Of a stretch of DNA of 55,726 nucleotides, positions 10,364 through 42,408 are shown piece after piece. Each line of letters starts with the position of its first letter. The first letter of the stretch is position 1. The notes under the pieces are model-generated. The model had not been told where the DNA came from. It saw only the letters and a list, made by a program, of their open reading frames with translations, and searched no databases. Origin of the DNA: a bacterium. Lineage in GTDB: Bacteria; Patescibacteriota; Patescibacteriia; Veblenbacterales; UBA10138. The stretch is from positions 1-55,726 of the forward strand of contig JAGVEX010000016.1 in the NCBI GenBank assembly GCA_020057885.1, given 5' to 3'. Made by a program: the position numbers and the translations under genes.

Positions 10364-10390
10364 TTAGCACTCTCGACCTTAGAGTGCTAA
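10364..10390 (+). promoter_or_regulatory. CIRCE element (HrcA operator)
   Basis: Exact TTAGCACTC-N9-GAGTGCTAA directly upstream of hrcA. Confidence 0.98.
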
Positions 10391-10420: not shown

Positions 10421-11116
10421 ATGGATAAAAGACAGCATAATCTGTTAGCCGAAGTGGTGCGAAGCTATATACGCGAAGCAGAGCCAGTTGGCTCTAAAGC
10501 GTTAGAAGGGGCTTTGGGTGTAAGTTCGGCTACTATCCGTAATGACATGGCTGAATTGGAGGAGCAAGGTTTTTTGGCCCAACCATACACTTCAGCCGGC
10601 CGAGTGCCGACTTTAAAAGGTTATCAATTTTTTATTGATAATTTATTGGAAGCGCGCGAGCCTAAAATAACAGAACAAAGACTTTTAAAAGATTTAGTGA
10701 AACAATTGCAAGCCTCTCACGAAGCTGTGGTTAAAAATTTAGCGCGCAAGTTAGCCGAACTAGCGGGTGAGGCAGTGGTAGTAGGTTTTGCACCTTACGA
10801 CGTATACTATACTGGTTTAGCTAATTTATTTGAACAGCCTGAGTTTGCTGAGGTCAATATGGTGCGCCATATTGGCAAAGTGATTGATAATTTAGACCAA
10901 GCTATGGCTAAACTTTATCATGATACTAACCATAATGAAGAAGTGGGGATAAAAATTGGTTTATCTAATCCTTTTGGCGAAGGTTGTGCCTTAATATTTA
11001 CCAGTTGCCGTAATCTCGAAACGCGTAGCTTAATTGGTCTGCTTGGCCCTATTCGAATGGATTATGATGCTCATATTGGCAGATTGCAATATATAAAATC
11101 ACTTTTCACAATTTAA
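10421..11116 (+). CDS. hrcA: Heat-inducible transcription repressor (short form)
   Basis: EPVGSK, SSATIRNDMAELE, TSAGRVPT and LGPIRMDY; adjacent CIRCE. Confidence 0.95.
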   Translation: MDKRQHNLLAEVVRSYIREAEPVGSKALEGALGVSSATIRNDMAELEEQGFLAQPYTSAGRVPTLKGYQFFIDNLLEAREPKITEQRLLKDLVKQLQASHEAVVKNLARKLAELAGEAVVVGFAPYDVYYTGLANLFEQPEFAEVNMVRHIGKVIDNLDQAMAKLYHDTNHNEEVGIKIGLSNPFGEGCALIFTSCRNLETRSLIGLLGPIRMDYDAHIGRLQYIKSLFTI

Positions 11117-11119
11117 AAT

Positions 11120-11623
11120 ATGAATAATGATGAATCAGAATTAAAAGAGAAAATTCCAACTCAAGCATCGGCCCCAGTGTCGGCCGAAGGCGAGCCAGAT
11201 TTAGCGCGACAATATTTGGAGGGCTGGCAGCGCGCTAAAGCAGATTATGCAAATTTAAAGCGCGAAACCGAAAGTAGAATGCAAGATTTGGTTAAATATG
11301 CCAACGCCGAACTTTTAAAAGAGTTATTGCCGCTAGTTGATTATTTTAAGCACGCGCTTAAAAGCGTCCCCACCGAGCATAAAGGGGATTCCTGGGTAGA
11401 GGGTATTCGGCATATTCAATCTAAACTGGAACAAGTATTGGCGTATTATGGAGTTAAAGAGCTTGAAGTAGTGGGAGAAAAATTTGATCCGGCCTTTCAT
11501 GAGGCAGTTGGTGAAGTGGAAAATTCAGGCGAGTCTGGTGGTATAATAGTAGAGGAAATTAGAACAGGTTTTATGTTACACAATAAGCTATTACAGGTAG
11601 CGCGGGTGAAAGTAGCTAAATAA
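11120..11623 (+). CDS. grpE: Nucleotide exchange factor GrpE
   Basis: RAKADYANLKR, LLPLVD, GEKFDPAFHEAV and ARVKV. Confidence 0.95.
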   Translation: MNNDESELKEKIPTQASAPVSAEGEPDLARQYLEGWQRAKADYANLKRETESRMQDLVKYANAELLKELLPLVDYFKHALKSVPTEHKGDSWVEGIRHIQSKLEQVLAYYGVKELEVVGEKFDPAFHEAVGEVENSGESGGIIVEEIRTGFMLHNKLLQVARVKVAK

Positions 11624-11986: not shown

Positions 11987-12409
11987 ATGTCAATTGTACG
12001 TTGGACACCAATGTTTCCTGCACTCGAAGAGTTTGATAAATTTTTTGACGATTTTTCTCCTATGAATCGCATGGCAAATTTTGTGCCTGCCCTGGATGTT
12101 TATCAAACTAAAGATGATGTAGTGGTAGAGGCGCCGCTTGCCGGCATAGATCCAGCCAAGGTGAGTATCTCCATTGAGAATGATGTTTTGACTATTGAGG
12201 GTCAAAGCGAGCACAAGAGCGAGGTGGATGAGAAGAATTATTACCGCAAAGAGGTGCGCTGTGGCTCGTTTCATCGTTCCGTGGCTTTACCTGCCGCAGT
12301 GAATGGCGATAAAGCTAAAGCGACTTATGAAAAAGGTGTGCTTAAAATTAGTATTCCGAAAGAGGAGAGGGCAAAACCAAAAACTGTCAAAGTTGAGATA
12401 AAGGATTAG
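11987..12409 (+). CDS. Hsp20/alpha-crystallin small heat-shock protein
   Basis: PALDVYQ, GSFHRSVALP, AxYEKGVLKISIPK and a C-terminal VxV motif. Confidence 0.95.
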   Translation: MSIVRWTPMFPALEEFDKFFDDFSPMNRMANFVPALDVYQTKDDVVVEAPLAGIDPAKVSISIENDVLTIEGQSEHKSEVDEKNYYRKEVRCGSFHRSVALPAAVNGDKAKATYEKGVLKISIPKEERAKPKTVKVEIKD

Positions 12410-13185: not shown

Positions 13186-15105
13186 ATGCCAAAAATATTA
13201 GGAATAGATTTAGGAACAACTAACTCTTGTATGGCCATCATCGAAGGTGGTGAGCCTAAGGTGTTAGAAAATAAAGAAGGCGCGCGCACCACGCCATCTG
13301 TTATAGCACAAGCCAAATCGGGTGAGCGCCTGGTTGGTTTGCTGGCTAAGCGCCAAGCAGTTACGAATCACGAGAATACGCTTTATTCCATTAAGCGCCT
13401 TATTGGCCGCCGCTGGGACGATCCAGAAGTTCAGCGTGATTTAAAAGTGTTACCGTTTAAGTTGGTAAAATCGGGTGAGGGAGTAAAAGTTGCTATGGGC
13501 GGCAAAGAATATAGTCCGCAGGAAATTTCCGCCATGGTATTGCAAAAAATGAAAGCTGATGCTGAAGAAAAGACTGGTGAAAAGATTACCGAAGCAGTAA
13601 TTACCGTACCGGCTTATTTTGACGATTCACAGCGCCAAGCTACCAAAGACGCCGGTGAAATTGCCGGTCTTAAAGTGCGGCGTATTATTAACGAACCTAC
13701 AGCCGCGGCTTTGGCCTATGGGTTTGATAAAAAAAAGGATGAAAAAATCGCAGTGTACGATCTTGGCGGTGGTACTTTTGATATTTCGGTGTTGGAAGTT
13801 TCAGCTGACACAGTAGAGGTTAAGGCTACCAACGGTGATACGCATTTGGGTGGCGATGATTTTGATCAGCGTATTATTCACTGGATTGTGGACGAATTTA
13901 AAAAAGATACATGTGTGGATTTATCCAAAGATAATTTAGCGCTACAACGCGTAAAAGAATCAGCGGAAAAAGCTAAAATTGAACTTTCCACCTCAATGGA
14001 AACGGAAATCAATCAGCCGTTCATTACTTCCGATGCCTCTGGCCCTAAGCATTTGGTAATGAAAATGACACGCGCCAAACTGGAGGAATTAGTGAACGAT
14101 TTAGTGCAAAAAACTTTAGAGCCGACTAAAAAAGCTTTGCAGGATGCCGGTTTAACCGTGGGACAGCTTAACGAGGTAGTTTTGGTTGGCGGTATGACTC
14201 GTATGCCGCTAGTGCTAAAAACTGTGGAAAAATTCTTTGGTAAAAAACCAAATGTGTCAGTGAATCCCGATGAAGTTGTGGCAGTGGGTGCGGCCGTGCA
14301 AGCTGGTGTTTTACAGGGTGAAGTGCGCGACGTACTATTGCTTGACGTAACTCCGCTTTCACTTGGCATTGAAACTTTGGGTGGCGTAATGACCAAATTA
14401 ATAGATCGTAATACCACTGTGCCAACCTCCAAGAGTCAAATTTTTTCTACCGCAGCCGATGGCCAAACCAGTGTGGAAATTCATGTGTTACAGGGTGAAC
14501 GCGAATTTGCGCCCGATAATAAAACCTTAGGCCGGTTTATTTTGGATGGTATTCCACCAGCCCCGCGCGGTATGCCGCAAGTGGAAGTATCTTTTGATAT
14601 AGATGCCAACGGTATTCTCTCGGTAAAAGCCAAAGATAAAGCGACCAGCAAAGAGCAAAAAATTACTATCACAGCTTCTAGTGGCCTTTCTAAAGATGAA
14701 GTGGAAAAAATGAAGAAAGAGGCAGAACTGCACGCGGAAGATGATAAAAAGAAGCGCGAACTTATAGATATGAAAAATACGGCAGAATCTACTGTGTATC
14801 AAACTGAGAAAATGCTAAAAGAGCAGGGCGACAAAGTGCCGGCTGATATTAAAAAAGATGTGGAAGAAAAATTAGAAGCTGTGAGAAAAATTAAGGACGC
14901 CGAAGATGTAGCTACAATTAAATCAGCGCTGGATGCTTTACAGCAGTCTGTAATTAAGATTGGCGAGGCAATGTATAAAGCTCAATCAGCCTCCGCGCAA
15001 GGCTCCGGCGGATCTTCGACCGGTTCAGAGCAGTCCACTGGTCAATCAGCAGAGGATAAGAAAGATGAGCCCATTAGTGGGCAGTATGAGGAGGTTAAGA
15101 AGTAA
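13186..15105 (+). CDS. dnaK: Chaperone DnaK (Hsp70)
   Basis: [25 protein letters not shown] and [11 protein letters not shown]. Confidence 0.99.
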
Positions 15106-15113
15106 TTAAGTAG

Positions 15114-15137
15114 GGCGCCCCGCATACGCGGGGCGCC
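15114..15137. repeat. Perfect GC-rich hairpin after dnaK (terminator/stabiliser or REP-like)
   Basis: ggcgccccgc-atac-gcggggcgcc; no adjacent U-tract. Confidence 0.6.
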
Positions 15138-15182
15138 TAGATTCTAAATTGTCATTCTTAATTTTTACAAACGTTCTTTGAA

Positions 15183-15573
15183 ATAAAAAACTGGCCACCG
15201 AATATGCAAGTGACCAGTATGAGATGACAATCCGCGGGGTGGAGATTCTTTGCCAGGAAAAGCTCACGCAACTTGTCTTTTCTCTTCAAGAAGAATTGAC
15301 CTCCACCACCATTAAGGAGGTAATAGGGTTAGCGCTATGAAGATAGCAGACGTTGTAGTTTAGCTACTTGGCGTCACTTCCATGGGTTCCCCTTGTTATA
15401 TATTTTGGCTCGGGCTCCCTCCTTAGCTATAGTGTGCCAGTGTCATTACTTCCTGGCAGCCCCTAAAAAGTGTTACTACTGGATTGTCGTGGAGGTATAC
15501 TTCATGATAGCCTCCTTTGTTTGTTGTTACGCCGCCAGCCGAGTACACTATTAAAGTACAGGTCAGCAACTTA
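15183..15573 (-). ncRNA. Candidate structured RNA / micro-ORF transcript of unknown family
   Basis: Promoter TTGACT (15608-15603), 17 bp, TAAGAT (15585-15580); terminator ctggtcac/gtggccag plus U-tract (15217-15183); three nested long-range helices; no long ORF. Confidence 0.55.
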
Positions 15574-15631
15574 AGCATTATCTTATTCCAAATCAAATAA
15601 TTAGTCAATTTACAATTTTATTCCATATTAT

Positions 15632-15664
15632 TACTTTCTAATTTGCCTAAATAGGAAAGTAGTA
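15632..15664. promoter_or_regulatory. Palindromic element, copy A
   Basis: tactttctaattt-gcct-aaataggaaagta(gta); inverted copy of 18327-18359 (30/33 identical). Confidence 0.7.
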
Positions 15665-15722
15665 GAAATAAAAATATTTAAAATTTATTCATTATTCATA
15701 ATTCTTAATTCCAAATTAATTT

Positions 15723-15747
15723 AAAACTCTTACTCTTAACTCTTACT
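15723..15747 (+). repeat. 25-bp (ACTCTT)x3 element, copy 1
   Basis: aaaactcttactcttaactcttact, identical to 23200-23224; ends 7 nt before an ATG. Confidence 0.8.
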
Positions 15748-15754
15748 TAACTAT

Positions 15755-16042
15755 ATGCCTAACGAACAACAGCAAATCCAAGTCAAAATCAGCGATAAGG
15801 TGCTAAAAGGTGTTTATGCCAATTTGGCGCAAATTGCCCACAGCAAAGAAGAATTTGTTATAGATTTTATGACCATGATGCCACCTCAGGGTATTGTAGG
15901 CGCGCGGGTTTATATGAATCCAGCCCATGCCAAGCGCTTAGGGCATGCTTTGCTCGAGAATGTAAAAAAATATGAAGATCAATTTGGCAAGATTGAAGAC
16001 GTTGCCCAACAAACTCCAGAAGTTGGCTTTAAAACCAGCTAG
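15755..16042 (+). CDS. DUF3467-family protein
   Basis: GVYANLAQIAHSKEEFVIDF, PAHAKRL and YEDQFGKI pattern. Confidence 0.85.
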   Translation: MPNEQQQIQVKISDKVLKGVYANLAQIAHSKEEFVIDFMTMMPPQGIVGARVYMNPAHAKRLGHALLENVKKYEDQFGKIEDVAQQTPEVGFKTS

Positions 16043-16129
16043 TTTTTGACAATTTAAATATTTTTTGTTAATCTTGGTACAAATTGCACACTTAAATTAA
16101 CTAAAAATAAACATCAATAGGAGAAATAT

Positions 16130-16426
16130 ATGTCTGATAAACAAAATACTGATCAGTTAGTTGTAGATGAAGGTGGACAATATGCATTTTTTCCACCATC
16201 AGATGGTACCAGAAAGTCTGGACCTATTGGACCGACTGAGGCGGATAGAGTTATTGCAACTATTAGATCAGGACAAATAGAACTTGATATACATCAAAAA
16301 AAAGAAGATTCATGGGAAATTTCAAAGGATTATCTTAGTTTTCGAGTACAAGAGGAGTTAGTAGCAATAGATCCGGATTCTTCAGATATTCCTGTTTTTA
16401 AAGAAGAAGAATCCAGTTTTTTATGA
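16130..16426 (+). CDS. Hypothetical acidic protein (orphan cassette)
   Basis: SD AGGAG; promoter TTGACA (16046), 17 bp, TAATCT; terminator aaggcatcg/cgatgcctt (16439-16480). Confidence 0.65.
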   Translation: MSDKQNTDQLVVDEGGQYAFFPPSDGTRKSGPIGPTEADRVIATIRSGQIELDIHQKKEDSWEISKDYLSFRVQEELVAIDPDSSDIPVFKEEESSFL

Positions 16427-16488
16427 ATCATTTAAAGTAAGGCATCGTTAATAATTTTTACTGCGATGCCTTTTCATTTTTTGTAATT

Positions 16489-17619
16489 ATGGCTAGTAAA
16501 GATTATTATCAAACATTAGGAATATCAAAATCCGCTTCGCCAGATGAAGTTAAAAAAGCTTTTCGTAAACTGGCACACCAGCATCATCCGGATAAGCACG
16601 GTGGTTCCGATGCTAAGTTTAAAGAGATAAACGAGGCTTACCAAGTGCTTTCTGATTCCCAAAAGCGGCAACAGTATGACCAATTTGGCGCTAATTTTGA
16701 AAGTGCTGGCGGCCCTGGTGGTTTTAATTGGCAAGATTTTGCGCGCGCGCAACAGGGTGGCTTTAATCAAAGTAACGTTAATTTTGATTTTGGCGACATT
16801 GGTGATTTGTTTGGTGACTTTTTTGGCGGGGGAGCCGGTCGCCGCTCCAGACGCGCCGGACCGCGGCGTGGGGCGGATGTGGAGTTTGTCACAGCGATTG
16901 ATTTTCGTGAAGCTGTTTTTGGGGTGGAAAAAGTTTTGCGTTTTGAAAAATCTATAGTGTGCAATCATTGCAAAGGCTCGGGCGCCGAACCGGGGGCTAA
17001 AATAAACACTTGCTCAACCTGCGGCGGCGCTGGGCAAGTAGAGCAAATGCAGCGCACTTTTTTGGGCGCTATGCGTACAGTGGCTGTTTGTCCAACCTGC
17101 GGCGGCGAAGGGAAAAGCGCGGAAAAAGCTTGTACCCATTGCCACGGCAAGGGGAGTGAAGTAGGAGTAAGAGAACTTAAGGTCCAAATTCCCGCTGGTA
17201 TTGATAATGGGCAAGCTATTAGGCTTTCGGGCGAAGGCGAGCCAGGCGTCAAAAGCGGACCGGCTGGCGATTTACATTTAATTGTGCAAGTTAGGCCCGA
17301 TAAGCTATTTAAACGCGAAGGTTACAATTTAACCACTGCCCGGGAAATAAGTATGTCACTTGCCAGTTTGGGCGGCAAGGTTAAATTAGCCACGCTTGAT
17401 GGTGATATTTATTTAAAAATTCCAGCCGGCACGCAAAGCGGCAAGATTTTTAAGTTAGAAAGCAAGGGCGTGCCGCATTTACGCGGTAAGAATAGAGGCG
17501 ATATTTTAGTAACAATTTATGTAAAAACTCCGGAAAAACTTAGTAAAAAAGAAAAAGAATCAATCCGCGCCTTGCCCAAATTAGCGGGTGAGGAAATAGA
17601 TGATTTCGGGTGGTTTTAA
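16489..17619 (+). CDS. dnaJ: Chaperone DnaJ
   Basis: J-domain HPD, G/F-rich region and four CxxCxGxG repeats. Confidence 0.98.
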   Translation: MASKDYYQTLGISKSASPDEVKKAFRKLAHQHHPDKHGGSDAKFKEINEAYQVLSDSQKRQQYDQFGANFESAGGPGGFNWQDFARAQQGGFNQSNVNFDFGDIGDLFGDFFGGGAGRRSRRAGPRRGADVEFVTAIDFREAVFGVEKVLRFEKSIVCNHCKGSGAEPGAKINTCSTCGGAGQVEQMQRTFLGAMRTVAVCPTCGGEGKSAEKACTHCHGKGSEVGVRELKVQIPAGIDNGQAIRLSGEGEPGVKSGPAGDLHLIVQVRPDKLFKREGYNLTTAREISMSLASLGGKVKLATLDGDIYLKIPAGTQSGKIFKLESKGVPHLRGKNRGDILVTIYVKTPEKLSKKEKESIRALPKLAGEEIDDFGWF

Positions 17620-17630
17620 ACCACCCTTTT
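17608..17630 (+). terminator. Terminator overlapping the dnaJ stop
   Basis: gggtggtt/aaccaccc followed by tttt. Confidence 0.6.
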
Positions 17631-17639
17631 GTTTACTCC

Positions 17640-17668
17640 TTGACAGTTTTAATTTTTAGTATTATAAT
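17640..17668 (+). promoter_or_regulatory. Perfect-consensus sigma70 promoter
   Basis: TTGACA (17640-17645), 17 bp, TATAAT (17663-17668). Confidence 0.85.
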
Positions 17669-17756
17669 GTATTATTAAATAAAAATTCAAAAATAATCAA
17701 CTAAAATAACTAAAAAACAAACAAAATAAAAAAATCAAAGATTGGAGTTTAATAAA

Positions 17757-18200
17757 ATGAACCAAATGGAAGTTTCCGGCAAAAGTCTCGTAACAATTTT
17801 GCACTTGTTATTATCTGAGATGTTCTATCTTTTGGTTATGGCGAATAAATATTCGCTTGATGATTCCGAGAAAATTCTTAATTTATTACAAAAATATTGC
17901 TCCGATAAATCCGGGGTGACCAGTGATGAAATAAAAGCCTTTTCGATGTGTTATGGGTTAAGAATTGAGGGCATCAATGATTTTAAACAGAGACTAGATT
18001 GTTTCGATGTTGCCAAAGAGATGGGTATATCACCATCGAAAGTTACACAACTTACGCATTCCTTCATTGGTAAAATTAAAAATTCTCATTTTTGCATTGA
18101 ATTTCATTCAATGTTCAGAGCATTCAAATATGCTGACGATGGCCAAAAACTGCAAGACGTTGAGCTAATTCAAGTCGTAACCGAGATAGTAGAATTGTAG
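17757..18200 (+). CDS. Orphan with a sigma70 region-4-like HTH (ATG at 17757 after GGAG preferred)
   Basis: FSMCYGL...DVAKEMGISPSKVTQLTHSFIGKIK resembles region 4.2 (RFGL...EIAxxxGVSxERVRQIxxxALxKL); terminator at ~18223-18262. Confidence 0.6.
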   Translation: MNQMEVSGKSLVTILHLLLSEMFYLLVMANKYSLDDSEKILNLLQKYCSDKSGVTSDEIKAFSMCYGLRIEGINDFKQRLDCFDVAKEMGISPSKVTQLTHSFIGKIKNSHFCIEFHSMFRAFKYADDGQKLQDVELIQVVTEIVEL

Positions 18201-18326
18201 CCGCTATAATAAATAAAATTTTAGAGAGGATTCATTTTTATTTTGAATCCTCTTTTCTTTTTTAAAAATGTTATTATTTAAAGCAACATTAATCAAAAAC
18301 TCTTAATCAATGTTTTTTACTTACCA

Positions 18327-18361
18327 TACTACTTTCCTACTTAGGCAAATAGGAAAGTAGT
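18327..18361. promoter_or_regulatory. Palindromic element, copy B
   Basis: (tac)tactttcctactt-aggc-aaataggaaagta, 20 bp upstream of TTGACA (18380). Confidence 0.7.
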
Positions 18362-18453
18362 TAAATTAATGTGTCTGGTTTGACAAACAATGTTTAATTT
18401 AGTAAGTTGTCAAAAACAAAATAAGAGCAATGTAGTATTGCCAAAGGAGACAT

Positions 18454-18720
18454 ATGACAGAAGAACGAAGAAAGGTTTTAGAGAAAATCAAAACCGACCT
18501 CGCGATTATTAAAAATAACGGCGGAATGGCTGTAAGCTGGGTAGACAATCATAGCAATATTCATTCGGCCAGGTGTTTAGGCCCAGACAAGAGTGGTGAT
18601 TGTATGCTTATTGAGCGTTTTCCAGGCCATGGAACTATTGAGGTGCCACTTGATACTATTTATAGCTTCACGATACTAGTGGCGTACAATAATTTAACAT
18701 TTCCGCCAAAATCAAAATGA
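18454..18720 (+). CDS. Hypothetical protein, possible Sm/SH3-like beta-barrel (orphan cassette)
   Basis: SD AAAGGAG, own promoter and terminator; N-terminal helix then a beta-strand pattern ending IEVPLDTIYSF. Confidence 0.6.
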   Translation: MTEERRKVLEKIKTDLAIIKNNGGMAVSWVDNHSNIHSARCLGPDKSGDCMLIERFPGHGTIEVPLDTIYSFTILVAYNNLTFPPKSK

Positions 18721-18742
18721 TTGCACGAATCTTAACGTAAAT

Positions 18743-18775
18743 AAGCCGGTCTTAAATAATTTGATCGGCTTTTTT
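18743..18775. terminator. Terminator between convergent genes
   Basis: aagccggtc/gatcggctt followed by a T-tract. Confidence 0.65.
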
Positions 18776-19736
18776 AATTAAAATTTACTGTTAGTATGTT
18801 TTTAATCTCTTCCAGTGTTTTTATGTGCACTAATTGCGTGCGTATTTGGGAAGCACCGGCAAAACCTTTTACATACCAGCTTAAATGTTTGCGCAGTTCA
18901 ATTAAACCATATTCGCCTTTGCTTTGTAGAGCGATTTCGGCGTGTTTAAGCATAACTTGTTTTATGGCTGTCCAATCTGGGGTTTTGTAACTGCCAGTAG
19001 TTAGATATTGTTTAATCTGTTCAAAAAACCAGGGTTTCCCCCAAGCGCCGCGGGCAATGCCAACGCCGTCAGCCCTAGTTGCTTCTAGAACCTCTTTGGC
19101 ATTTTCCGGCGTGTAGATTCCGCCATTGGTTAGCAGAATGCCGGACCAAATTTTTCGCACTTCCGCCACTACGTTTAAATTTGGTTCGCCGTCAAAAGGC
19201 TGTTCGTAAGAACGCGCGTGAATCATAATAGTGCTTACTGGCAGTGCTTTTATTTTATCCACCAAATCCAGCGCAGTTACTACACCAGCATTTTGTTTTT
19301 TAATACTGGCGCGGATTTTTATGGAGATTGGCAATTTAGTGCCTTCGCAAGCCGCTTGTACAAGTTCATAACACAAAGGTAAGTCACGCATTAAAGTTAC
19401 CCCGCCGCCGTTACGCACTACTTTATAGGCCGGACAGCCAAAATTTAAATCTATGCCGGCAAAGCCCATCTCTTCTAAAACTTTCACGGCTTTAAAAAAA
19501 TGTTCCGGTTTTTTGCCGAATATTTGGCAAACTACTGGCTGTTCGGCTGGATCATAACCAATAAATTCTTTGGTTTTTTTATTTTCATAAACCAAAGCAT
19601 CAACCGAGGCAAATTCAGTATAAATAACATCCGCGCCGTAAGCTTTACAAAGTTGCCGAAAAGCTGTATCAGTCACGCCAGCCATCGGCGCCAGCGCGAT
19701 TATTGGTTTAGGTAATTTTGTCCAAAAATTGTTCAT
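18774..19736 (-). CDS. tRNA-dihydrouridine synthase (Dus family)
   Basis: [27 protein letters not shown] and RKHLSWY. Confidence 0.93.
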
Positions 19737-41922: not shown

Positions 41923-41935
41923 ATGTTTAATTTGC

Positions 41936-42408
41936 CAGATAAACCAATAAGCCGAATTTTGTATTCCGATTTGCATCGGAACAGCGACTATCTATCTTGT
42001 TCCTAATTCGCATTAGGACTCTAGCTACCAACCCGTCCCGCCTAGCGGGACCTACTTGGTATTGCACCGGGTAGAGTTTGCCTAGCCCTCCAAATCACTT
42101 TGGAAGCTGGTGAGCTCTTACTTTACCCGCCGAAGCGAGCTATCCCGCGCGTAGGCGGGCTCACCGTTTCACCCATCACCCCGTAAAATTAATTTTGCAA
42201 TTAATCACGTGGCTGGTTTATTTTCTGTTGTACTTGTCCTGCGGCCTTGTTACCAAGGCCAACGGCTCCTGTTAGGAGCTACCCCTCCCTAAAAGCGGGA
42301 GCGCTATGGTGTTCGGACTTTCCTCCCCTCGACAAGCTCGGGGTAAACCCCAAAGTATATTAGGGTTTGTCTTGAGCTTGCCGAAAGGCAATCGCCTAGA
42401 TTTACCTA
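41936..42408 (-). ncRNA. rnpB: RNase P RNA (ends approximate)
   Basis: The minus strand has GAGGAAAGUCC, GGGUGAAACGG, GGCAAACUC and 3' ACAAAAUUCGGCUUAU. P1 pairing is seen, with TTGACT upstream (42444-42439). Confidence 0.95.

Follow-up and report, generated by a model that had tools for sequence, protein, structure and literature searches.

Introduction

Proteins of the ArsR/SmtB group are small HTH_5 winged-helix regulators that repress their own genes. Described examples are SmtB, CzrA, CadC and the non-metal members HlyU, BigR, SdpR, PagR and NolR. Their operator is an imperfect palindrome ahead of the gene over its own promoter, for SmtB and CzrA with a layout of roughly 12-2-12, and there are few further operators. 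Sensing sites in these proteins are an alpha3N Cys pair, His/Asp/Glu residues in alpha5 or a reactive Cys pair as in BigR. Chaperone genes are preceded by another inverted-repeat operator, the CIRCE element of HrcA. Palindromes are also known from REP/REPIN elements, dispersed in tens to hundreds of copies and flanking the gene of the likely binder RAYT, and from the sites of Cre/loxP and XerCD/dif with 13-bp inverted arms. In tyrosine-recombinase sites the asymmetric centre measures 6-8 bp.

Patescibacteria (CPR) cannot be grown alone, and to our knowledge almost nothing is known about their transcriptional regulation. A full-text literature search, including the term DUF3467, found no paper on an ArsR-palindrome system of this type in Patescibacteria. 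Here we describe a 30-bp palindrome in a window of 55,726 nucleotides, the whole stretch of DNA analysed, from an ultra-small member of this phylum. Its sequence context indicates that it is probably bound as operator by a small repressor of the ArsR/SmtB winged-helix type that lacks a sensor site and is encoded elsewhere in the genome (C13:50182-50442).

Results

The initial annotation of the window had pointed to two inverted 33-mers at positions 15632-15664 and 18327-18359, and these were indeed identical in 30 of 33 positions after reverse-complementing, compared with 12 of 33 in direct alignment. The shared element is a palindrome of 30 bp with the consensus TACTTTCCTAyTT-AGGC-AArTAGGAAAGTA, a 13-4-13 layout. 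Copy A (15632-15661, plus strand) has its core GCCT directed toward the DUF3467 gene and matches the consensus on the minus strand with two mismatches. Copy B (18330-18359, minus strand) carries GCCT on the minus strand, presents AGGC toward ORF18454 and matches on the plus strand with one mismatch. The number of consensus matches expected in the window by chance was zero (100 shuffles). Seven copies are present in the genome containing the window (G000, 952 kb), two of them in the window, while a reversed control pattern had no match in a search of the whole G000 genome. Of 20 further genomes from the same Patescibacteria family, 11 contained the motif, and it was missing from all 20 genomes taken from other families; this 40-genome comparison gave one control match. 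Motif-bearing genomes have 1-7 copies. An exact 24-mer of the palindrome occurred in 12 stretches among all GTDB species representatives, only in this family. The motif is confined to a single Patescibacteria family, and its role as a putative regulatory protein-binding site, rather than a chance repeat, is supported.

Altogether 39 sites were collected, 34 of them asymmetric, and no clear gene contained any of the 39. Toward a gene start at most 100 bp away, as placed by our own ORF calls, GCCT is directed in 26 of the 34 asymmetric sites. Distances from site to start codon range from -9 to 98 bp; at eight sites the right arm (AGGAAA) lies within 9 bp of the start codon or even overlaps it. 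The site centre is most conserved, with G14 C15 C16 T17 invariant in 33 of 34 sites, which may reflect the promoter instead of protein contacts. For five of the 34 sites, copy B and G000:C4:5063 included, the first 500 bp on the usual side contain no gene start. Such sites are located just past terminators or amid convergent genes, an odd setting for an operator. In the relative G011 one site is duplicated together with a fragment of the 5' end of an HD gene.

The only close ArsR/HTH_5 gene of G000 is located outside the window at C13:50182-50442 and is bracketed by palindromes at C13:50136 and C13:50447. Its product of 86 amino acids is an HTH_5/ArsR-type winged helix-turn-helix protein by its matches to HTH_5 (PF01022, E 1.5e-10, 41.2 bits for a cut-off of 22) and to the NCBIfam ArsR/SmtB profile NF033788 (73.5 bits, cut-off 55); the nearest solved structure is HlyU (3jth, E 2.4e-8). 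The protein has no Cys and two His residues, and none of the alpha3N Cys pair, the alpha5 His/Asp/Glu ligands and the BigR-type Cys pair was found in it. Palindromes 16-19 bp ahead of the ATG of an ArsR gene are also present in G004 (two genes, four sites), G005 and G012. In all five AGGC-type ArsR genes the inverted repeat lies over the gene's own predicted promoter, with the site ending 16-19 bp before the ATG and TAnnnT following at +5..+10 past the site. A variant with GCGC core precedes a second ArsR paralogue by 22-35 bp in G004, G005 and G011, and here TGnTATAAT or TGnTATGAT follows immediately in three of three sites. Among 22 ArsR-like genes in 20 further loci from relatives, 11 are accompanied by a private long palindrome at a distance of about 60 bp or less, four of the 11 being bracketed on either side; these palindromes have an inner ATT[CT]-core-[AG]AAT in common and differ in their outer arms. 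The occurrence of ArsR-like genes cannot discriminate, since all 20 family genomes have them. In G002, G007, G009, G015 and G017 no canonical site was found beside any ArsR-like gene, and the cognate pairing in these genomes is thus putative. The ArsR proteins of G006, G008 and G010 are 51-55% identical to that of G000, yet these genomes lack the canonical motif.

At the ArsR genes, the palindrome core TTGCCT would constitute the -35 box, with TAnnnT as -10 box 17 bp further on; this TTGCCT-17-TAnnnT promoter of the AGGC-type genes is a prediction from the nucleotide sequence. The ATG follows 6-9 nt past the predicted -10 box, and the promoter is probably leaderless. With its -35 box inside the palindrome, a bound ArsR protein would occlude its own promoter, amounting to autorepression.

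Copy A is followed by the genes for DUF3467 (15755-16042, plus strand; PF11950, E 2.9e-25), the first gene of the operon, for a protein of 98 amino acids without known family (orf98, 16130-16426, plus strand) and for DnaJ (16489-17619, plus strand), in which Pfam recognised the J domain (E 2.4e-42), the CXXCXGXG zinc centre (E 1.4e-24) and the C-terminal domain (E 5.4e-16). The gene content of the slot between DUF3467 and dnaJ varies among relatives. The order dnaK>DUF3467>dnaJ is collinear in seven of seven genomes. Orthologues of site A are located 41-93 bp upstream of DUF3467 in seven genomes of six genera, GCCT reading in gene direction in every case, and due to this fixed position and orientation we propose site A as operator of DUF3467-orf-dnaJ. 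Six of the 14 family genomes with an examined DUF3467 locus have no upstream site, and in G009 the site is about 1.2 kb away. Repression at DUF3467 is a prediction from the overlap, since the spacing from TTGCCT to the -10 box is non-canonical there. The classical heat-shock operator is separate: perfect CIRCE elements, which differ in sequence (TTAGCACTC-N9-GAGTGCTAA) from the palindrome, are present in G000 only at 10364-10390, preceding hrcA (10421-11116) and grpE, and on contig C12 (C12:83495).

In the spacer between dnaK (13186-15105, plus strand) and DUF3467, a candidate structured RNA of about 390 nt is encoded on the minus strand (15185-15573, ends predicted from the sequence), convergent with dnaK. 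It has a promoter (TTGACT 15608-15603, TAAGAT 15585-15580), a terminator hairpin with U-run (15217-15185), a GC content of about 45% compared to 17-25% in the adjacent spacers, a fold z-score of -2.39 on its own strand and a covarying helix. Rfam had no match, and conserved blocks were detected in G008, G009 (two copies) and G011. The initial annotation had tied this RNA, the palindrome and ORF18454 together. The spacings on which it relied are correct: copy A is 23 bp from the TTGACT on the minus strand, copy B is 20 bp from TTGACA (18380-18385), and both are followed after 17 bp by a second hexamer, TAAGAT and TAAGTT, respectively. Our promoter scan reported the TTGACT promoter at 9/12; the TTGACA promoter was absent from its output, the second hexamer being below the scan threshold. 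Both copies also share the polarity of AGGC toward the promoter, yet this is the reverse of the polarity toward the nearest gene start in the 26 family sites, and copy B is the sole asymmetric site with a gene start on the AGGC side and none on the GCCT side. Across genomes, site A keeps its position to DUF3467 and not to the RNA. At the same locus no palindrome was found beside the RNA in G008 and G011, the promoter in G008 being TTGACA-17-TAAGAT, and in G009 the palindrome lies past the RNA terminator, not before the RNA promoter. The RNA is real, and it belongs to the dnaK-DUF3467 spacer independently of the palindrome.

Copy B is situated between dnaJ and dus in an insert that only G000 has and that carries two orphan genes; G012 also has a site at this 3' end of dus, next to other neighbour genes. 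ORF17757 (17757-18200, plus strand, 147 amino acids) has a perfect TTGACA-17-TATAAT promoter at 17640-17668. Its proposed sigma-70 region-4-like HTH is a weak lead (Pfam E 0.14-0.17, Atlas score 0.86), and no homologue was found in 40 relatives or in a set of 5.8 billion proteins. The motif is present in 11 of these 40 relatives, and ORF17757, previously suggested as the single activator, is not its binder. ORF18454 (18454-18720, plus strand, 88 amino acids) has a good ribosome-binding site, no homologue in the 40 relatives and one known homologue with 77% identity. The Sm/SH3-like fold attributed to it has weak support: one of five AF2 models reached a pLDDT of 80.5 with a helix (residues 3-21) and five strands, the other four 33-46. 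The VIA comparison gave Z 7.7 both to designed SH3 barrels and to Hfq 6gwk, the latter with an rmsd of 2.0 over 62 residues; by the tool's own note, values below 8 fall among those of common arrangements. Foldseek matches had E-values of 5.9e-3 at best. No Pfam family (E up to 1), NCBIfam or Hfq/LSM profile matched the sequence, and a search of the whole G000 genome with PF17209 found nothing. ORF18454 is a possible small Sm/SH3-like beta-barrel according to this model. With both orphans missing from all 40 relatives, and the RNA in G000, G008, G009 and G011, the expected co-occurrence of RNA, ORF and motif does not exist.

Discussion

The outcome is a concrete candidate regulator-operator pair with a small regulon, testable in vitro. 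Predicted members of the regulon are the regulator itself, two NUDIX genes with a Ham1-like gene after them, RmlD and DUF3467-dnaJ. Copy A abuts the promoter of DUF3467-orf98-dnaJ and would bring these co-chaperone genes under control of the same ArsR repressor, alongside HrcA/CIRCE. As HrcA and both CIRCE elements are also present in G000, the palindrome would be a second, separate layer acting on DUF3467-dnaJ only, a hint at additional control of part of the chaperone machinery besides HrcA/CIRCE. Copy B may modulate ORF18454 from about -70, or may be a solo site without own promoter.

The earlier account of an RNA and an Sm protein does not hold. An upstream activator site serving the RNA and ORF18454, with ORF17757 as activator, would agree with a real RNA, with the Sm/SH3-like model and with two copies of the same polarity 20-23 bp upstream of TTGAC[AT]-17-TAAG[AT]T, the site centre at about -70 to -74 being a possible class I activator position. 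The distribution largely refutes it and leaves it very improbable: the orphans are missing from relatives that have the motif, the RNA occurs without palindrome in G008, under the same promoter type, and in G011, and among the 39 sites no further one is followed at +20 in AGGC direction by a promoter of this kind; four of the five ORF18454 models were poor. A role at the RNA level, as transcribed 13-bp hairpin for termination, processing or ribosome-binding-site masking, is equally hard to sustain. The AGGAAA arms near eight start codons could be hairpin-masked Shine-Dalgarno sequences and some sites are in 3' regions, but no U-run follows the hairpin, the start-codon distances vary and the arms are perfectly complementary in only 6 of 34 sites, with 41 uncompensated against 4 compensated deviations. 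Frequencies of the pair 11-20 are exactly those expected under independence; arms that evolve independently fit protein-DNA recognition, not an RNA hairpin. Inversion of the 2.7-kb DUF3467-dnaJ segment between lox- or dif-like sites, raised earlier as an alternative, is extremely improbable. The two copies are inverted with 13-bp arms around an asymmetric centre, but this centre (AGGC or GCGC) has 4 bp instead of a 6-8 bp crossover, the seven copies are dispersed, the gene order is collinear, and a second site after dnaJ exists only in G000. G000 has three genes for tyrosine recombinases (PF00589; C12:161794, C2:60112 and C13:59388), all on contigs other than C5, the window contig. An identity as lox/dif core site was rejected on the crossover region as well as on nearby recombinases.

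It is unlikely, though less so, that the palindrome and its ArsR-like binder form a portable or selfish, semi-mobile unit similar to REP/RAYT, in which solo copies mark junctions of variable DNA and regulation is secondary. The bracketing of the regulator gene on both sides, the five sites with nothing to regulate, the duplication in G011, the G000-specific insert around copy B with other neighbours at the same dus end in G012, and the RNA on opposite flanks of the site in G000 and G009 would be explained by it. The copy number is however low and stable, the sites ahead of DUF3467 are orthologous in position and orientation across genera, no site lies within a clear gene and the geometry to the ArsR start codons is fixed; no Y1 transposase (PF01797) was found in G000, and the flanked gene is of ArsR type. 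A broader and rather doubtful idea is the palindrome as a portable promoter-operator cassette. Its -35 box (TTGCCT) in the core and SD-like AGGAAA in the right arm would create an ArsR-controlled start on landing, the copying of sites would recruit new regulon members, the sites would also mark variable-DNA junctions (ORF17757/ORF18454, RNA insert), and sensor-less ArsR paralogues with private palindromes would form much of the transcription factor repertoire of these reduced genomes.

Among the known systems, Hfq/Sm proteins and small SH3-like barrels (RimP C-domain, WYL, YaeO/Rof) share with ORF18454 the predicted helix and five strands; it differs from Hfq/Sm by the missing LSM or Hfq family match and the single confident model. 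Cre/loxP and XerCD/dif have the same arms, asymmetric centre and pair of inverted copies, unlike the present system with its short centre, seven copies, no adjacent recombinase gene and no inversion among relatives. REP/REPIN with RAYT is alike in dispersed palindromes flanking the gene of the likely binder, but reaches far higher numbers than the 1-7 per genome seen here, where the positions are orthologous across genera and no Y1 transposase was found. HrcA/CIRCE shares an inverted-repeat operator preceding chaperone genes and differs in sequence and regulator family. Closest are the ArsR/SmtB autorepressors, with the same small HTH_5 protein, a predicted imperfect palindrome over the own promoter and few further operators. 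Here, the protein has only 86 amino acids without cysteine and without the usual metal ligands, the operator is 13-4-13 instead of about 12-2-12, the gene is bracketed on both sides, each paralogue has its private palindrome, and the predicted regulon includes a co-chaperone operon. The ArsR-palindrome pair is a family-specific variant of this theme.

Palindrome sites in the source genome and its relatives

Both palindrome copies of the initial annotation were recovered. The 30-bp inverted repeat (13-4-13, with the asymmetric centre AGGC/GCCT) matched at 15632-15661 on the minus strand (copy A, two mismatches to the consensus) and at 18330-18359 on the plus strand (copy B, one mismatch); no match is expected in the window by chance (100 shuffles). 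The inverted identity of the two 33-mers was 30/33 as claimed, and the promoter spacing was confirmed as well: a gap of 23 bp separates copy A from TTGACT-17-TAAGAT on the minus strand, and one of 20 bp separates copy B from TTGACA-17-TAAGTT. A promoter scan picked up the former promoter, not the latter. The source genome (G000) comprises 952 kb at 38.8 % GC on 21 contigs, of which the window is one entire contig (C5). Seven sites were present in the whole genome at up to six mismatches, and none was found with the reversed control pattern. Two sites on contig C13 (50136 and 50447) bracket an ORF of 86 aa at C13:50182-50442, one lies between an FdtA-like cupin gene and rmlD (C13:180015) and one after greA (C4:5063). 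Six of the seven have the AGGC/GCCT centre; the site at C2:52431 has GCGC and is a perfect palindrome with nearly identical arms. This GCGC-core site (C2:52431-52620, fetched as locus L007:1432-1620) is followed 9 nt on by an extended -10 (TGCTATAAT) and then by about 130 GC-rich nucleotides that end in a hairpin and hold neither an ORF nor an Rfam match. In relatives, the GCGC-core variant of this site precedes a second ArsR paralogue that is absent from G000. Rfam searches of the C2 and C4 site loci and of the relative G009 returned nothing relevant.

When up to three mismatches were allowed in the arms, 11 of 20 further genomes of the family carried the palindrome, with one to seven sites each, and none of 20 genomes that each represent another family of the class did (the control gave one hit). 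Among all GTDB species representatives the exact inner 24-mer occurred in 12 stretches only, all on contigs of the source family; their records read Candidatus Kerfeldbacteria, Patescibacteria group or Parcubacteria group, and two are labelled as Gammaproteobacteria MAGs. For the analysis of neighbourhoods, the DNA around the sites was fetched, ORFs of at least 50 aa were called by us and clustered by BLAST. The set comprised 39 sites, 34 with the asymmetric centre and five with GCGC, leaving out G016:C63:11310 (three mismatches in one arm) and a core-less false match (L045:5603). None of the 39 lies inside a clear gene. At one locus (L029:1835-2014, on contig C84 of G011) two sites are spaced by 120 bp that hold no ArsR gene, and the second precedes a short duplicate of the 5' end of an HD gene; the arrangement resembles a cassette that is empty or rearranged.

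DNA site, RNA hairpin or recombination site

Only 6 of the 34 asymmetric sites, which represent 25 distinct sequences, had perfectly complementary arms. The arms departed from their consensus 19 times on the left only and 22 times on the right only, versus 4 compensated changes, and the variable pair 11-20 (TA 14, CA 11, TG 5, CG 4) had exactly the frequencies expected for independent variation. Such independent arm changes argue against a selected hairpin and fit two half-sites read by a protein. The centre was more constant, with G14 C15 C16 T17 invariant in 33 of 34 sites, and oriented: GCCT points to a gene start not more than 100 bp away in 26 of 34 sites and 163-247 bp away in three more, while five sites had no gene start within 500 bp in this direction. 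Copy B is unique among the 34: a gene start lies where AGGC points, and GCCT points to none. The initial annotation had alternatively proposed lox-like sites able to invert the segment between the two copies. This reading is disfavoured by the centre of only 4 bp, the seven dispersed copies and a collinear gene order in 7/7 genomes; the three tyrosine recombinase genes of G000 are all on contigs other than C5, and a Y1 transposase was not found in the genome. Contigs of three DNA runs, which leave parts of the stretch uncovered and from which rare inversions could escape, gave no strand-changing joint. Contigs with loose ends occurred at 18328 and 18359-18361, and two of these ends were recognised as flanks of the C13 palindrome copies. 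One contig of run X1 (151 nt, depth 7.8) joins 17290, within dnaJ, to 18577, within ORF18454, and omits 1286 bp in between; the two sides share eight letters at the junction, which is not at the palindromes, and the contig may represent either a deletion variant or a chimera.

At the ArsR genes the oriented centre suggests a mode of action for a protein-bound site. The five AGGC-type ArsR genes carry TAnnnT (TAAAAT, TAAGAT, TAGGAT, TAAGGT, TAATGT) at +5 to +10 after the site, which places it 17 bp downstream of TTGCCT and 6-9 nt ahead of the ATG; the three GCGC-type ArsR genes have TGnTATAAT or TGnTATGAT immediately behind the site. Thus TTGCCT would also serve as the -35 box for a promoter that is probably leaderless and that the bound protein would occlude. 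The extension of this role of TTGCCT to every site was rejected, since the 17-bp spacing fails at DUF3467, rmlD, the C4 site and copy B. There the bound protein might cover a promoter placed differently, act as a roadblock, or do neither.

Copy A and the DUF3467-dnaJ operon

Seven genomes of six genera (G000, G002, G004, G007, G015, G016, G017) have a site 41-93 bp before the start of DUF3467, in all of them with GCCT reading towards DUF3467 and with dnaK, DUF3467 and dnaJ collinear. Downstream of the site come a hexamer resembling TAAAAT/TATAAA and a leader with the conserved sequence UUUAUUC...UAAUUC; on the far side of the site the DNA varies between genera. These seven belong to 14 DUF3467 loci examined in the family. 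Six of the 14 (G001, G003, G005, G008, G010, G011) had no site within 260-300 bp upstream, and in G009 the site lies about 1.2 kb from DUF3467, behind an inserted ORF and two copies of the candidate RNA. Judged by this conservation, copy A is predicted to be a conserved element that controls DUF3467-orf-dnaJ. The genome has two perfect CIRCE elements, at C12:83495-83521 and in the window at 10364-10390. The latter precedes hrcA-grpE (10421-11623), followed by an Hsp20-like ORF (11987-12409), and no CIRCE stands directly before dnaK. As G000 has hrcA and these CIRCE elements besides the palindrome, the palindrome would form a separate control layer.

The DUF3467 leader (15662-15754) holds repeated TTATTC/TAATTC units that are conserved across genera, e.g., ttattcattattcataattcttaattcc, and recur in the orthologous leaders of loci L034, L037, L041, L043, L044, L045 and L093. 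They may be a second regulatory element. Small GIY-YIG-like ORFs of about 96-102 aa were observed in or near the dnaK-DUF3467 spacer in G002 (L034:3230-3520), G008 (L093:2153-2443) and G011 (L089:2257-2565).

The candidate RNA

In the dnaK-DUF3467 spacer, the stretch 15106-15600 has a coding-like GC content of about 45 %, compared with 17-25 % in nearby spacers, and fold z-scores of -3.84 on the plus and -2.39 on the minus strand. The candidate RNA is predicted to span about 15185-15573 on the minus strand, with promoter, terminator and the conserved blocks GGAGGGAGCCCGAG ... GGGGAACCCA ... CAUAGCGCUAACCCUAUUACCUCC. These features recur, always in the dnaK-DUF3467 spacer, in G008 (L093:1836-2045), in G009 as two tandem copies (L031:2340-2600 and 2620-2980) and, more diverged, in G011 (L089, upstream of DUF3467). 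The promoter TTGAC[AT]-17-TAAGAT was seen in G000 and G008, and the outer helix covaries, with four of eight pairs changed on both sides in a three-sequence alignment. Rfam at gathering thresholds reported only RNase P (41932-42408) in the window; on 14900-18900 with E-values up to 10 it gave sub-threshold rows at chance level and no match for the RNA. BLAST of the region against 40 relatives yielded short matches in G009 only, plus one match of 33 nt in G013. The pattern of a 19-nt block, searched in 301 genomes of the class, hit G000, G009 and one further sequence with one mismatch, no better than the control rate; a gapped pattern retrieved G008 and G009 from the 21 family genomes and missed G000 by design, the gap being 72 nt there. 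MAFFT did not align the 5' block and the long copy correctly, which precluded a covariance model; the presence in at least four of 21 family genomes is accordingly a lower bound.

The initial annotation proposed that the palindrome places this RNA and an Sm-like protein from ORF18454 under one activator, with the product of ORF17757 as the candidate. In relatives the RNA occurs without the palindrome: no site was found beside it at the G011 locus or anywhere in the G008 genome (up to three mismatches), and this palindrome-free genome has the same RNA promoter, TTGACA-17-TAAGAT. In G009 the palindrome is found 45 nt beyond the terminator of the last RNA copy. The RNA is thus conserved where the palindrome is missing or elsewhere, which speaks for a real, locus-specific RNA, probably a new structured element, whose link to the palindrome is a shared address and not a common regulation.

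The proposed protein partners do not support the system either: neither ORF17757 nor ORF18454, which sit with copy B in a dnaJ-dus slot whose content differs between genomes, has a homologue in 40 relatives. In G012 a site lies at the same 3' end of dus among other neighbours. ORF17757 matched only itself in 5.8 billion proteins; it is preceded by a perfect sigma-70 consensus promoter (TTGACA-17-TATAAT, 12/12, 17640-17668), and of its suggested sigma4-like HTH a weak signal was left (Pfam E-values of 0.14-0.17; Atlas score of 0.86 to sigma-70 region-4-like clusters). ORF18454 has one full-length homologue, 77 % identical, on a 653-bp contig and starts after a good ribosome-binding site; it is therefore probably a real gene. 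Its relatives were not found in genome and metagenome contig sets, its Atlas scores (up to 0.87) are at lead level only, and in the HMMER representative search the sole matches, weak and inflated by repeats, were to giant Big_9/cadherin-like proteins. ORF18454 may have an Sm/SH3-like fold: a helix and five strands appeared in the one confident model of five AF2 models (pLDDT 80.5, the others 33-46), with a best Foldseek E-value of 5.9e-3 (Gemin6/7, Hfq). The VIA-align Z-scores of 7.7 to Hfq and designed SH3 barrels and of 7.3-7.5 to RimP and WYL domains fall below 8, the tool's mark for more than a common arrangement, and no Hfq or LSM profile matched.

A candidate repressor of the ArsR type

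The ORF between the two C13 sites (C13:50182-50442) encodes an ArsR-type protein, with a Pfam HTH_5 match (E-value 1.5e-10), 73.5 bits to the NCBIfam ArsR/SmtB family NF033788 (cut-off 55) and HlyU (3jth, E-value 2.4e-8) as the closest solved structure. The protein has no cysteine and two histidines. An HD-domain gene precedes its gene, and two NUDIX genes and a Ham1-like gene come after it. From the end of the site to the ATG of the ArsR-like genes, the distance is 16-19 bp in G000, G004, G005 and G012. G004 has two ArsR paralogues, with four sites bracketing ArsR-HD-ArsR, and the GCGC variant stands 22-35 bp before a second paralogue in G004, G005 and G011. The ArsR-like 'LKALANRRRL' family is expanded in the source family (20/20 genomes, one to nine hits each; outside the family 3/20). 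In L067 (891-914), L070 (895-918, no mismatches) and L076 (897-920), the conserved LANRRRL codons themselves form a palindrome of 24 bp. Twenty further ArsR loci were fetched, holding 22 ArsR-like genes, half of which (11/22) had an individual long palindrome not more than about 60 bp away; four were bracketed on both sides. An inner ATT[CT]-centre-[AG]AAT is common to these palindromes, and the outer arms differ. The paralogue and its palindrome co-vary, as cognate pairs of ArsR protein and operator would. Since G000 holds only one close member, the C13 protein is the natural candidate binder of all seven sites. The best explanation of these sequence comparisons, and in our judgement a likely one, is that the palindrome serves as the operator of this ArsR-type repressor. 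For an unculturable lineage this would provide a first regulon that can be tested. The system is of a known kind, and the palindrome is its family-specific variant.
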